NCBI GenBank assembly: GCA_963678065.2
Contig: CAXXVZ010000004.1
Location: 480,001 to 544,000 of the forward strand
Source: Treponemataceae bacterium
Lineage (GTDB): Bacteria > Spirochaetota > Spirochaetia > Treponematales > Rectinemataceae
Length of the DNA stretch: 64,000 nt
Direction: 5' to 3'
Each line of letters begins with the position of its first letter. Position 1 is the first letter of the stretch. Of the stretch, positions 12,001-24,000 are shown one piece after another. The position numbers were made by a program.

Positions 12001-15000
12001 TCAGGTTTTCCGGATTGAGGCACTCGAGCTCGGGCAGGACGAAGAGGCCGTCCTTGCGGACGAGACGGCCGTCGAACCGTATCTCGCCGCCGCCCCAGTC
12101 CGGTCTCTGGATGAGGACGAGATCCCAGTGGAGGGCGGAGCGGTTGCCGTTGAAGCAGTCGTCGTAGGCGTTGCCCGGGGTGAAGTGGATGGAGCCCGCT
12201 ATCTTCTCGTCGAAGAGGGTCTCCTTCATGGGCGAGGTGATGAAGGGATTGACGCCGATCGCGAATTCCCCGACGTAGCGCGCGCCCTCGTCGATGTCGA
12301 ATACCCGGTTGATCCGGGCTGTGTCGTTCGAACTCGCGCCGACGATTTTTCCCTTCTCGAAGTCGAGCACGATCTTCTCGTAGGTAAAACCGTCCTTCTC
12401 GCTCGGGGTATTGTACGAAATCCGGCCGTTCACCGAGTCGCGGAGGGGCGCAGTGTACACTTCCCCGTCGGGGATATTCATGCTGCCATCGCACTTGACA
12501 GGAGGCAGTCCTTTGATCGAGAAGGACAGGTCTGTGCCGGGTCCGCGGATCTCGACTCTGTCGGTAGCGGCCATGAGGGCGACGAGCGGGTCCATGGCTC
12601 GGGACATCTTTCCGTAATCCATCGTGCAGACCGAGAAATAGAAGTCCTCGAAGGCTTCCTCGCTCATCGACGCCGCCATGGCCATGGCGGCTGAGGGGTA
12701 GCGCAGGACGACCCAGCGGGTATTCGGGACGCGCTCCTCGATGTGGACTTTTTTCCAGATGTGGCGGTTGTAGAGCTCGAGCTTGTCGGAGGGAATGTCC
12801 GACCAGGCGTACTGGTTGCGCAGGCTCGAGAAGCCGATGAAGACATCCATCTCCTTCATGCGCTCTCGCTCGAAGCGAGCCTGGAGCTCGAAAAACTCTT
12901 CACTCCCCCGCCGGTAGAGGGCGCGCTCGATCGTCCTGTCCCGCAACGCCACGAAGGGGATTCCCCCGGCGTCGTGTACAGCCTCGATCAGGGCTTTCAC
13001 GAACTCGGGTTCCGTGTTGGTGTTCTGGATCAGAACTTTTTCTCCGGCTTGGACCCTGGTGGAAAAATTCACCAGTATGTCGGCGAGTTTCTTCAGTCTC
13101 GGATCGGTCATTCCCGCGCTCCTTGGTCGATTATGTCACTCTCGGGGAGGTCTCAGGTCCCGTCGCTTCATGGCTTCTGCGCCCAGGCCTTCTTGATTAT
13201 GTAATAGCTTTCCTTGTACCGCTCGATATAGGGCGGAGGAAGCTCCCATCCCTTCCAGAAGAAGGGGCTCTCCGGATCGCCGTCGAGCCTGCCGACAACC
13301 TTTTTCCCGACATTGTCCCACCACATGACCGAGGCGACGACGCCTTCGGTCTTCTCCGCCTTGAGCTGGTCCTGGACGGGAATGAAGATATCCCAGCGCA
13401 GGTCGTGGAGGACGTGGAGTGAAGAAGGGTCGGTGAAGTTGATCCTCTGCCAGGGGATGCGGAAGCGGAACTTCGTCCCCTCGACCTTCCAGAGATTGGT
13501 CTGCCGGTCAAAATCCCCGCGGTAGAGCGTGCTCTGGTCGAAGTACTTCGCGGGGATCCGGCGGCCGTCCCTGGTCGTCACAGCAGCGTTCACGAGGGGC
13601 ACGATGCGCTCGAAGACGCCGTCCCAGAGGGGTTTTGAGTCGTAGCGGCCGAGGAACTTGTTGTAGGTCGTGATGACCTTGAGCTCAGCTTTGTCCTGCG
13701 AGGAAATCGTGATGAGGAATTCATTCCCCGACAGGAATGGGACGCCGCCGACGGGATAGCGCATCTGTCCGAGATCCCTGCGGTATGTATCGAGTCCGAT
13801 GAAGAGCGTCTGCTTCCCGAAATCGGGCATGTGGTCCAGGGTCACATCGATGTAGAAATAGGCGGGATCGTGGGCGAGCTCAAGCTTCGTGATCGGACCA
13901 TTGTTGTCGATCGCCGTCCATTCGGGCTTTTCCGGCGGCATGGGAGTCATGGCGAGGAGGCCGTAATTCTGCTCGGGATCGTCCACGTTGTGCCAGTAGA
14001 TGTGGCGCTCGTAGGGTATCATGAATGGCTCGTTGGTCCAGGTCTTCTTGACCCACTCGTCCATCCACTCGAACACGAGGCCTCCTGCGTAGCCCTCGGT
14101 CTTGATCGCCTCGAGCATGCGCAGTATCCCCTCTCCCTGCTCTTTTTCCTGGATCGCCCCGTGGTTGTAGCCGTCCGGATTGAAGTGAGCCACCGATGAA
14201 CCGTTTGCGAGGCCGAACTCGGCCACCAGAGCCGGATACTTGGAGTGCCCGCTCATGAACTCGCGGAGGTATCCGCCGTACATGAATCGTCCGGCGGCAT
14301 CGCGGTAGTATCCGAATTCCTTCTCGTCGTTCATGAAGTCAGGATAATTCGGGTATATATGGTAGGCGCCGAAGATGCCCGCTTCCATTTCCGGGAGGGT
14401 GTCGATGCTGTTGATGTCTATGGAGGCGTTGTCGTTGAAGCGACGGGCTTTTCCCGTTCCGGTATCCCACTCGTAATCGTGGCTCCGGGGGTCGAGAGTG
14501 GGCCAGCTGACCATGCCCACGGGATGCATTTTCCCGTACATGCGCATTTCCTGCTTGACGACCTCATCCATGCTCTCGGCGAGCCACACCTCGGTGGGAG
14601 AGGCTCCCGATCCCGATGTCACATAGCTTCCCTTGTAGCTGACGCCGGGGTTGAGCGAATTGGTGGCGATGACCTCCGGGGACTCGAGTTCCCGCCCCGC
14701 TATCCACCCAAGGAGCCAGCGCGAGACATCGGCGGTGTACACTCCCCAGGCCCTGCCCTTTCGCTCCGTTATGTTCGCGCGACCGTAGACAGCGTCCACC
14801 GCGTACTCGATTTCCTTGAGGAAGTTCTTCTGGTAGCCGGGCGCGAGATAGTTGTTGCCCGGGGGCTGCTCCTCGGGCCAGATGCCCTGAAGGAGATAGA
14901 GCGGTTTGTCGGGATGGAGACGATTGTAGGTGTCGAGGGCCTGGTAGAACTGCGGCGAGGGCAGAGTGTAGATGCGGACCACGTTGGCGTTCATCTCCCC

Positions 15001-21000: not shown

Positions 21001-24000
21001 GTAGGAGACGATGGAACCCGCAAAGTGGAGGTACGGTGTATGGATGAAACGGATGCTGCGCCCGGTGGCGAGGCAAAGGCTGTAGCCATGCTCGTCGACG
21101 AGATAGTAGGGCGACCTGATTCCGTAGAAGCGGACGAGGCCCCAGGTGCGCCAGTGTGTGACGATCGTGAAATTCATGCCCCTTTTCTCCATGAGGGGCA
21201 CCGCGGAGGCGAGGTCGGGGTCCTGGTGGGAGAGCACGACGTATTTCACTTTGTGGAGCGGGATGAGGCTCTCCACGTTGGCGATGACCCGTTCGTAATC
21301 CAGGACGGAGCCTGGATCGAAGAGGACGCCCTCGTCGCCCTCGATGAGGAGATAGGGATTGCATTGCAGGTTGTCGGAGGCTTCGGCGGTGCCGACCCAG
21401 AAGAACCCGTTGCCCAGAAACTCAATTTTTCGGCTGTCCCGCATCCGCCACCTCTTCCGAACGTCTTCTTACGCTCTTTAGTATCGGCAGGACGGATGAC
21501 AGGCATGAATCCTATGTGGTCGGGGAGTTGACCGGGTTCAGGGCTTTATCTCCTTTCAGGACGCGGACAACCTCGTGGGCGGCCCGCCGTTTCAGCTCGA
21601 CGATGGATTTCTCGGAATACCAGGCCGCGTGAGGCGTCAGAATGACGGAATCGAGGCCGAGGAGGGGATTGTCCGGGCGAAGAGGCTCGGTCTCGAGCAC
21701 GTCGAGTCCCGCTCCCGCGATCCTTCCGGCCCGGAGGGCGCCGACGAGGGCCGACTCCTCCACGAGAGGGCCGCGCGCGGTATTCACGAGGAAAGTTCCG
21801 GGCCTCATCATGGCGAACTGCCTCTCGCCGAGGAGGCCGCGGCTACGCGCGTCGAGGAGGCAGTGCAGGCTGATAACCTCAGCCTGGGCGCAGAGCGTCT
21901 CGAGCTCGACCTTCTCGACGCCCAGCCGTCCCATGGCCTGTGCGTCGACATTCGGATCGGTGCCGATGAGCCTGAATCCGATGGGAGCCAGTTTGCGCGC
22001 GAGGCTCGAGCCGATCCTTCCGAGGCCGATGATGCCCGCCACCGTGTCCCGGGAATTGCGGATCGGCGCCGCGCGGGGATAATTGAAGTCGTCATCGCCT
22101 TTCGCCCTGTCGTAGCGGACGATTCCGCGCGTGAGGGCGAGGATGAGCGCCAGGGCGTGGTCGGACACTTCGTCGACGCAGTAATCCGGCACATTGCAGC
22201 AGAGGATGCCCTTTCGGGCCGCGTATTCCGTGTCGAGATTGTCGTAGCCGACGCCGTAGCGGACAATGATCCGGCAGCGCCTCATCGCGTCGATCACGCG
22301 GGGTCCGACCTTGTTGTGCTGGACAATGAGGGCGTCGGCATCGGCGACGAGGCCGGATATGTCATCCTCGGTCGGTACCCTGTGCGCGAGGACCTCGAAG
22401 CCCGCGGCCTCGAGGATTTCCCTCTCCTGGTCCACTCGGGGATGCTCGTAATGGCAGATCACGACTTTGGCATTCATGGTTTTACTCCCGTTTTTTGTTC
22501 CCGCCCCCGTTCGCGCCCGCGGTGCCGTCACGCGCTGTGTCTGGCATGCATGCGCCGCGAAGGGCTCGCGATAGAAGTTGTAGCATCGACGACTTGTGTG
22601 TTCAAAAACAAAAGGCGCACCGTGCCGCGCGCCTTTCTGTCCAGTGGGGATTTGAACATGCACATTGTAGATCTATCATATTCACGAGCTTATTTCTACG
22701 GCATCCTTCATCAACGCTTCAGCGGTCATCAGGCATTTTCATGTACCGGTATGCCATAGGGGCCGTCGGGAAGCCACGCGACGCGGGGTGCGGGAAGGCC
22801 GGCGCTCTGTCTGCGCTGGATCTCCAGTTCCACGGCCCGCTCGATGACCCGCGCCGCATCCTCGAGCGTCAGGTCCTTGCGCGGCTTTCCGTCCAGGAAG
22901 GCAATGCCGTCGAGGCCGGGAATGAGTTTCCAGTCTCCGTCGGAAAGCTGGGGGGCGAAGTAGACGAATCGCGCGAAAGGCAGCCTGCAAAAGAGCTTGC
23001 ACCACATCTGCACCTGCCACTGCTCCAGCACGAAAGGCCAGTCCGGACTCATGAGAAGCCGCTCGAAGGCCCCGACGCCCACCTGCTTCAGGAGGCCCAG
23101 CACCGTCCTGTAAGACGCCCCTCCGACAGGATCGGCGTCATGGTTGTCGGCGACCAGGATGCACAGGGCGCCTCCGGCCAGCATCGGCGCGATCGCGGTG
23201 CCGGTTTTCGCCGCCTGGTAGTGGTTGCGGCCCACGAACCCCGCGTGCGATACGACGATGTCGTATTCGCCGCTGAAGGGAATGCCCACGTAGGAGCGCA
23301 CCTTGGCTACCGCCGCCTCGTGGGCCGCCTCGAGCGCGCCTGCGAAGACGCCCGTGAGCCTGAACGAGTGATCCAGCGTCACGTTGACGATGAAATCGAC
23401 GCCGGCCATCCTGGCCGCGAACAGCGACTCTTCGTGGCAGGGATTTCCGGCCAGGTAAAGATCGCGCGTGCCGGGGTGGGCCATCATGGCCGCGCCATGG
23501 AAGACATAGGTGCTTTTTTTACCCACGATGCCGGGACAGACACTCTTGCGGCCGCCCGAGGCGCCGGCCATGAAGTGGCTCTCCACCAGTCCCGTCAGAA
23601 TCCGGAAATCCGCCTCCATGTACGCGCGGTTGACGAATACTTCGTTGCCCCGCTCCGTGCGCCCCAGGCGCACGAGATTTTCCTCATCTTCGCAGTCGTG
23701 GTTCAGCACCCGTATTCCGTTTTCGAAGACTTCCGGGTCGAGCATCGCGCGGAGTTCAGCCTCCGACATCGCGCGGTGCGTGCCTGTGCCCACCAGAACG
23801 GTGATGTCGCCGCGCGCGAATCCAGAATCCTCCAAGGCCCGTATGATGGGCATGAGGATGCCGGATTCGCCCCTGTACGGCACCGGGCGGGTGTTGTCGG
23901 AGACGACGACGACAGCGGTCGGCCGTTTTCCCGCGGCCGCCTGCCGCGCGGCGGTTTCCGCGGCCAGCGCGGCAAGAGGTCTGGATGCGATCGGCGCTTC

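Follow-up and report, generated by a model that had tools for sequence, protein, structure and literature searches.

We analysed a 64,000-nt window of contig CAXXVZ010000004.1 (assembly GCA_963678065.2, Treponemataceae bacterium, family Rectinemataceae), and all coordinates are positions in this window. Three linked open reading frames are located on the minus strand (Table 1), with a 4-bp overlap between genes 1 and 2 and a 13-bp gap between genes 2 and 3. The preliminary description had placed a three-gene group here, and we find the operon to be real and conserved. Pfam confirms the domains it had named in gene 1 (ODP, GGDEF, receiver) and gene 2 (HEAT, GT2), whereas gene 3, described as being of no family and of unknown role, is by fold a member of clan GH-A. 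Promoter and terminator scans of the operon gave results at chance level. Short contigs from two lake-water RNA runs are scattered across the operon and adjacent genes (with shares of 0.17 and 0.12) and indicate neither expression nor regulation. The literature searched, outside which the original ODP paper lay, yielded no description of the operon, and the main text of PMC7112194 mentions none of HEAT, receiver, response regulator or spirochaet.

Table 1. Genes and features of the operon, in window coordinates
Feature	Position	Strand	Basis
Gene 1, regulator, 681 aa	19399..21444	-	ORF
ODP di-iron domain, aa 8-236	20737..21423	-	Pfam PF19583, PDB alignment, fold search
Helical middle domain and long helix 336-377 running into GGDEF (predicted signalling coiled coil)	20314..20724	-	structure model
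Degenerate GGDEF, aa 378-546	19807..20313	-	Pfam, motif reading
Pseudo-receiver, aa 558-676	19417..19773	-	Pfam, alignment
Gene 2, fused HEAT-GT2 synthase, 1008 aa	16376..19402	-	ORF
Four-Cys insert in HEAT region, C249-x2-C252-x13-C266-x11-C278, possible metal site	18569..18658	-	sequence
Gene 3, predicted exported protein with membrane anchor, 1064 aa	13168..16362	-	ORF
Clan GH-A (beta/alpha)8 glycosidase part	13168..15171	-	fold comparison

The gene 1 protein has no membrane helix and carries, in order, an ODP, a small helical domain, a predicted coiled coil, a degenerate GGDEF and a pseudo-receiver. Pfam PF19583 matches residues 25-213 (E 6.9e-59, 199 bits against a cut-off of 27.2), the domain aligns with PDB 6qrq (E 3e-31) and 6qnm/6r9n (E 6e-25), and ranks 1-10 of a fold search were all ODPs. 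Binding of two irons and formation of a stable peroxo adduct characterise the ODP class. All seven metal-site positions are intact in alignment with 6qrq and 6qnm (H73, D75, D77, H140, D159, Q212 and H213), including the ODP-type Gln of the PQH motif; the available part of PMC7785958 gives the set as H-x-D-x-D, H, D and Q-H, with Gln in place of the third His of motif 2. The regulator shares its fold with the ODPs of Treponema denticola (TDE2498) and Thermotoga maritima (PDB 6qnm, 6r9n, 6qrq, 6qwo; TM-score to target 0.79-0.83), as well as HQDPD, H140, D159 and PQH, but here the ODP is joined to a dead GGDEF and a pseudo-receiver, and the linked gene encodes a synthase instead of a chemoreceptor. 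The genes next to it encode a 2-hydroxyacid dehydrogenase and the synthase, with none of the sensor-less chemoreceptors that mark the chemotaxis class. In the portions available, ODP is described as an oxygen sensor (PMC7666581) and as a sensor of both oxygen and iron that several pathways have recruited, with fusions to signalling domains in general already reported (PMC7319448).

The helical middle region is shorter in several relatives. Pfam places GGDEF on residues 379-508, where RLHGATF replaces the GG[DE]EF of active diguanylate cyclases; this motif and HQDPD had both been read correctly before. No fused regulator (0/47) has GG[DE]E, and none of 93 homologues has Asp at the Asp position of RxxD, the I-site of the PelD/BcsE type. 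The receiver match covers residues 559-667. Glu608 sits at the phospho-acceptor position at the end of strand 3, where a phosphorylatable receiver has Asp, and Glu is found there in 91 of the 93 homologues; S638 and K660 are retained. Because a Glu stands there, residue 608 would be unable to accept a phosphoryl group. Judged by sequence, canonical c-di-GMP control is excluded for the regulator, and phosphorylation is likewise closed to it. The degeneracy of the GGDEF had been recognized earlier, but the missing RxxD site and the Glu at the phospho-site had been overlooked.

The synthase consists of a membrane anchor (7-25), a HEAT region, two helices (497-562), a GT2 domain and C-terminal helices. 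D625, D699/D701, GED 812-814 and QRDRW 856-860 are intact, corresponding to the D, DxD, (T/G)ED and QxxRW motifs of processive GT2 enzymes, with flanking membrane helices. The best NCBIfam match is PgaC/IcaA (TIGR03937), at 118.3 bits below the curated cut-off of 422.3, and nothing close to the GT2 part turned up in a PDB search. Gene 2 has the processive motifs in common with these poly-beta-1,6-GlcNAc synthases but differs in its N-terminal HEAT region, and neither PgaD/IcaD nor a deacetylase is encoded by the three genes; two relatives (L136, L139) have a deacetylase-like neighbour gene. Of 50 full-length fused synthases, 22 have the four-Cys pattern. We rejected it as an obligate partner of the sensor, since its presence does not follow that of an intact ODP site (with the pattern, 12 sites are intact and 9 degenerate or cut; without it, 11 are intact). 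When the receiver (553-681) was modelled in complex with the synthase (28-872), with no controls folded, scores of 0.28, 0.41 and 0.00 against a mark of 0.32 spoke neither for nor against contact.

The gene 3 protein comprises an anchor (12-30), an alpha/beta domain (40-390) and a clan GH-A barrel with a beta domain (398-1064). Its sequence has no match in Pfam, NCBIfam or the PDB, and an Atlas search with the C-terminal part found unnamed clusters only; leads for the N-terminal domain, DUF2194 and ThuA-like, were all under 0.9. The closest fold of the barrel is GH157, a family of beta-1,3-glucanase activity (9fz9; VIA Z 29.9, rmsd 2.3, 312 aligned), ahead of GH2 at Z 27.0, yet identity is 16% with no profile match to PDB sequences. 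In clan GH-A, one catalytic glutamate follows strand 4 and the other lies on strand 7. Gene 3 has E558 and E715 at these places, conserved in 100/101 and 101/101 homologues, respectively. We therefore predict a clan GH-A glycosidase; it resembles GH157, GH2, GH5, GH72 and GH158 in the barrel and both glutamates, and differs by the 16% identity to the best-ranked fold and by its extra N-terminal domain. As no Pfam, NCBIfam or PDB sequence matches it, it probably belongs to an unnamed family. The database label 'family 2 glycosyl transferase' on its relatives was rejected on fold.

A fresh sample of 61 family genomes gave matches to gene 2 in 38 and to gene 3 in 36. By hand count, the ODP part is present in 18 of the 37 genomes with completeness of 90% or more and contamination no higher than 5%, compared with 14 of 44 in the separate sample counted earlier; nine of these 18 have the full metal-site set, seven have lost it and two were not read. 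The three-gene order, previously reported as fixed, holds in every family locus that is long enough, but outside the family gene 3 is inconstant, and it is missing from 14 fused loci with room downstream. Regulator precedes synthase in every fused locus of Spirochaetota and Bacillota with both on the contig. The GT2 was matched in 39 Bacillota and 26 Spirochaetota, out of 401 genomes sampled from each phylum.

Of 102 synthases in the wider receiver/HEAT/GT2 family, the 57 fused ones group as a single clade (support 100/99, and 99 in another tree). A receiver gene lies directly upstream of the synthase in 29 of 45 unfused loci. Of 29 unfused operons, 27 have Asp at the receiver site; among 52 fused operons, Glu occurs there in 44, Asp in 5 and Ser, Gly or Ala in 3. 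In unfused relatives L124, L098 and L100, an Hpt-receiver or receiver precedes the GGDEF-receiver, that is, it takes the place held here by the ODP. Since receivers are Asp-type in unfused operons and mostly Glu-type where an ODP stands ahead of the GGDEF-receiver, the pattern fits a swap of input from phosphorylation to O2/Fe(II). Six metal-site residues are intact in 81 of the 93 homologues, a figure that overstates conservation, as the set was chosen by likeness to the query. Among 47 complete fused operons, 25 from two phyla keep the metal site, all with the ODP-type PQH, and 22 are without it (17 degenerate, 5 without ODP). The tree requires at least six changes of iron site or ODP, four of them forced by starred branches, with the operon retained. 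The deepest-branching fused row (L096) has an intact site, though as a long branch it does not make the ancestral state firm, and L093 combines an intact ODP with an Asp receiver. Among the named relatives, Desulfosporosinus acidiphilus carries Asp at the receiver site, and gene 3 is missing from its locus L093. The ODP is a swappable input and not a core part. The change from Asp to Glu happened once, in an ancestor, and persists where the ODP is lost, so it counts as a single observation.

Weighing sequence and models together, we give even chances to the 681-aa protein being a dedicated regulator of the neighbouring synthase, in which the di-iron ODP would read O2 or Fe(II) and relay its state by protein contact. 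The ODP state would shift the coiled coil and GGDEF scaffold, which would then expose or hide the pseudo-receiver; this could dock on the HEAT region of the synthase, as presumed for the Asp receivers of relatives. The product would be a beta-linked glycan, at best guess beta-1,3-glucan, which the glycosidase may trim or remodel outside the inner membrane. The earlier proposal of a synthase switched by oxygen holds insofar as the ODP protein appears as its dedicated partner, standing where relatives have Asp receivers, but the operons that lost the iron site or ODP weaken it.

Those same 22 operons would fit a regulator that is a constitutive structural subunit, its Glu receiver locked in a single state so as to activate or assemble the synthase, with the ODP an inherited passenger or minor tuner. 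Relatives L142-L144 retain a protein of 313-315 aa in which the receiver alone is recognised, a six-frame search of nine ODP-less loci found no ODP remnant, and degenerate ODP folds persist long in some lineages. However, 25 operons of two phyla retain all seven positions jointly, with an ODP identity of 57-68% in the loci compared, which is unlikely for a passenger site, and loss strikes several ligands together within a lineage. We regard this alternative as unlikely. It is more doubtful that a working sensor acts on another target, such as a kinase, a chemoreceptor or a step in transcription, and simply shares a transcript with the synthase. Contact does not follow from gene order alone, and the characterised ODP affects chemotaxis according to the available part of PMC7666581. 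The regulator has by Pfam no DNA-binding or kinase domain, though, Glu608 would not accept a phosphoryl group, and receiver genes adjoin the synthase in unfused loci too.

Slightly less probable again is nucleotide control, in which the dead GGDEF would bind c-di-GMP or GTP non-canonically or pair with an active cyclase, the ODP modulating only. The genome has 18 GGDEF matches and a basic stretch, RRLRxARKRGG, is conserved. Against this, the guanine-binding residues that follow the first GGDEF strand of active cyclases are replaced in the regulator's own subclade, and L142-L144 have no GGDEF match. PelD and BcsE are likewise catalytically dead GGDEF proteins encoded with a GT synthase, and the part of PMC8461298 available describes such degenerate partners and the binding of c-di-GMP by these two through the I-site. 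The regulator and its 93 homologues have no such site, and the regulator adds a metal sensor and a pseudo-receiver.

A separate question is whether the product is a periplasmic or cell-bound glucan, cut or transferred by the GH-A enzyme, instead of a secreted biofilm matrix; we put this slightly below even. Of 13 unfused spirochaete loci, 12 carry a gene for a TPR protein with a putative barrel; no fused locus has this gene, and neither tblastn nor a YaiO profile found it in this genome. Near folds of gene 3 include, besides GH157, the GH72 transglycosylases Gas2 and Gel4. Against this, an unlinked exporter is possible, the product would be surface-exposed regardless in single-membrane Bacillota, and the best NCBIfam match is PgaC/IcaA, even if far below cut-off. 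Since the fused clade is without the TPR-pore gene, the polymer may stay periplasmic, and the protective matrix proposed earlier is doubtful in two-membrane cells.

In the accessible part of PMC8846402, E. coli DgcO/PdeO, Acetobacter AxPDEA1 and a Vibrio hemerythrin-DGC place an O2 sensor ahead of a GGDEF-type domain, as the regulator does with its O2-sensor-type domain; those are active enzymes acting through a diffusible messenger, whereas here the cyclase is dead, and therefore any effect on the synthase would be by contact. In the cases described in these sources, as far as available, O2 reaches polysaccharide synthesis via c-di-GMP enzymes, and dead GGDEF partners are c-di-GMP receptors. 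A bolder and rather unlikely reading is a second-messenger-free O2 switch. A di-iron peroxo sensor would, in anaerobes among the spirochaetes and Bacillota, have taken over from the phosphorelay input of a widespread, undescribed receiver/HEAT/GT2 system. It would gate the synthase via the dead cyclase and the Glu pseudo-receiver, docked on the HEAT domain of the enzyme itself, and the processing enzyme would come from an unnamed clan GH-A family.

With a di-iron sensor domain where relatives have a phosphorylation switch, the regulator makes tuning of the synthase by oxygen or iron likely, even if roughly half of the related operons read are without the iron site. If contact gating is true, O2 or iron would control a synthase directly in organisms named as anaerobes. 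The operon is a compact test case of two proteins, for which nature supplies variants that keep or lack the iron site as well as receivers of the Asp and Glu type, and would open up an unstudied receiver/HEAT/GT2 family together with an unnamed clan GH-A family.

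Three open reading frames on the minus strand, for regulator (gene 1), synthase (gene 2) and a predicted exported protein (gene 3), were found at the coordinates assigned to them in the preliminary description, with a 4-bp overlap between genes 1 and 2 and a 13-bp gap between genes 2 and 3. Pfam domains were ODP, GGDEF and receiver for gene 1 and HEAT and GT2 for gene 2; a Pfam search with gene 3 gave no domain. Among 61 sampled genomes of the family, 38 had a match to gene 2 and 36 to gene 3, and the gene order, previously described as conserved, was the same in every family locus of sufficient length to show it. 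The operon is real and conserved. By hand count, the ODP part is present in 18/37 high-quality family genomes, with the full metal-site set in nine of these, lost in seven and unread in two. An M29 aminopeptidase gene lies 56 bp beyond gene 3. Most family loci that extend far enough also carry it downstream of the operon (66-74% identity), but no Bacillota or other-family locus that was searched does; shared ancestry of the site is the probable reason.

Features of the operon region (window coordinates)
Feature	Position	Strand
Gene 1 ORF (regulator)	21444-19399	minus
Gene 2 ORF (synthase)	19402-16376	minus
Four-Cys insert in gene 2 HEAT region	18569-18658	minus
Gene 3 ORF	16362-13168	minus
M29 aminopeptidase gene	11996-13111	minus

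Over residues 14-236 the gene 1 product can be aligned with the two solved ODPs (E 3e-31 and 6e-25), ODP chains took ranks 1-10 in a fold search, and H73, D75, D77, H140, D159, Q212 and H213 agree with the solved proteins; according to a passage of PMC7785958, what is unusual in the T. maritima ODP is the Gln at motif 5. The model of gene 1 (mean pLDDT 84, pTM 0.43, domain packing unsure) shows a small helical domain, then a 42-residue helix running into the GGDEF domain. RLHGATF stands at the GGDEF motif, GG[DE]E occurs in none of 47 fused-clade regulators, and the Asp of the RxxD site is missing from all 93 homologues. The phospho-acceptor position of the receiver is Glu608, and Glu is found there in 91/93 homologues. 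By these motifs, two of the three signalling domains lack their usual activity, which leaves the ODP site as the sole recognisable input. Two further, weaker matches to the ODP profile are present in the genome (G000:C3:451152-451742 and C5:246059-246514; 70 and 27 bits).

The processive GT2 motifs of gene 2 are complete and conserved; the closest named family is PgaC/IcaA, at a score far below that family's cut-off. An insert in the HEAT region, C-x2-C-x13-C-x11-C, is possibly a zinc or iron site; it occurs in 22/50 full-length fused synthases, in both phyla, and is deleted in several lineages. The GT2 part matches at E 1e-80 in 39/401 Bacillota and 26/401 Spirochaetota genomes, and at most matched loci receiver, HEAT and GT2 are separate genes. 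In a GT2-domain tree (n=102, leaving out 12 loci repeating sampled genomes, the paralogue locus L069 and loci with a split or shortened GT2), all 57 fused HEAT-GT2 synthases fall in one clade, supported at 100/99 in a careful 55-row tree. Bacillota rows fall among spirochaete rows, which suggests gene transfer between the two groups.

The upstream receiver site in unfused operons is Asp in 27/29, with one Asn and one Arg, the latter a one-residue misalignment of Asp; in the fused clade (n=52) it is Glu in 44, Asp in five, and Ser, Gly and Ala in one each. Unfused regulators are built as Hpt-receiver-GGDEF-receiver (L124) or receiver-GGDEF-receiver (L098, L100), and the ODP thus occupies the place of the relatives' phosphorelay input. 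This position is the best argument for the ODP as input to the synthase, and rests on one evolutionary event.

The iron site has been lost repeatedly. The six-residue set is intact in 25 of 47 complete fused operons, the ODP is degenerate in 17 and absent in five; ten further operons, cut or unreadable, stand outside this count. At least six changes map on the tree (bootstrap range 5-7), four of them forced by starred branches, and a hand count assuming that a lost site is never regained gave seven losses. The receiver Glu is mostly retained after loss. Many lineages thus operate, or at any rate retain, the system with no iron site, which is evidence against a simple oxygen switch. The direct oxygen switch proposed earlier is a plausible hypothesis, and the loss in 22/47 complete fused operons limits how far that claim can go. 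In five loci of genera g14 and g3 (L052, L053, L055, L056, L058) the ODP is fully decayed or cut, the receiver site is Asp again and the first acidic pocket is altered; these regulators possibly represent a return to phosphorylation.

The model of gene 3 is confident (pLDDT 92, pTM 0.88) and matches clan GH-A barrels. Foldseek and VIA both put GH157 first (Z 29.9, rmsd 2.3, 312 residues), followed by GH2 (27.0), then GH5 and GH72 (24.2). In the model E558 lies after the fourth barrel strand and E715 on the seventh, the catalytic positions of clan GH-A; among 101 homologues, E558 is conserved in 100 and E715 in all. The matched GH157 entries are, by their titles, complexes with laminari-oligosaccharides, which gives a hint, no more, of beta-1,3-glucan. 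The protein has a single N-terminal helix as anchor. At 56 other fused loci a gene 3 homologue is present in 36, and absent despite downstream room in 14, the other six loci ending at a contig edge; 17/45 unfused loci have one. Gene 3 is a frequent accessory rather than a constant component. A second, stand-alone member of the glycosidase family, of 809 aa and with a lipoprotein-like start (L069:8565-10994, G000:C4 about 98600-101000; 33-36% identity), has no synthase within its 18-kb locus, and a TPR-bearing paralogue lies near the operon in L034. In a Bacillota operon without ODP (L095:3927-10270) the N-terminal domain of gene 3 is fused to the synthase, and the regulator tail looks DivIVA-like by eye. 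In family f42 (L136:2847-6028, L138, L139, L140) two other genes stand in place of gene 3: one encodes an exported protein of 455 aa that belongs to no Pfam family, the other a protein of 590-630 aa that weakly matches polysaccharide deacetylase. The product may therefore not be the same in all lineages.

The protective matrix suggested in the preliminary description is less secure, a second point against a simple oxygen switch. A TPR protein (assigned by Pfam) whose C-terminal domain, from sequence alone, resembles an outer-membrane barrel is encoded in 12/13 unfused spirochaete loci. Because this gene is absent from all fused loci and was not found in the window's genome (99.9% complete), a secreted matrix is not assured in these two-membrane cells. 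A periplasmic or cell-bound glucan falls somewhat short of an even chance, and a secreted matrix is about as likely.

In the reading that we consider most likely, at roughly an even chance, O2 or Fe(II) would set the state of the ODP, the coiled coil and dead GGDEF scaffold would carry it to the pseudo-receiver, the latter would act upon the HEAT region of the synthase, and the glycosidase would process the polymer beyond the inner membrane. The observed basis for this is the domain content, the state of the motifs, the linkage and the clade structure, and the folds are predicted; metal and O2 binding, contact, direction and product are what we infer. A constitutive scaffold carrying the ODP as a passenger is an unlikely account, yet the strongest of the rivals. 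That the regulator signals to another target is less probable still, and non-canonical nucleotide control we rate slightly lower again. PelD and BcsE are described in passages of PMC8461298 as dead GGDEF partners that use an I-site.

Published passages describe ODPs fused to signalling domains or encoded within signalling operons (PMC7319448), ODP as an oxygen sensor in chemotaxis (PMC7666581) and O2 sensors in c-di-GMP networks (PMC8846402). In the passages and part of table 3 of the last, 'diiron' and 'lactamase' are absent, and a term search of the main text of PMC7112194 gave no match. Neither an ODP paired with a synthase nor the receiver/HEAT/GT2 system was found described in the literature searched, which took in a minority of subscription journals. 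So far as accessible literature goes the operon is undescribed, and the supplement of the original ODP paper may list the neighbourhood. Among synthase-dependent polysaccharide systems it represents a variant that is new in its regulation.
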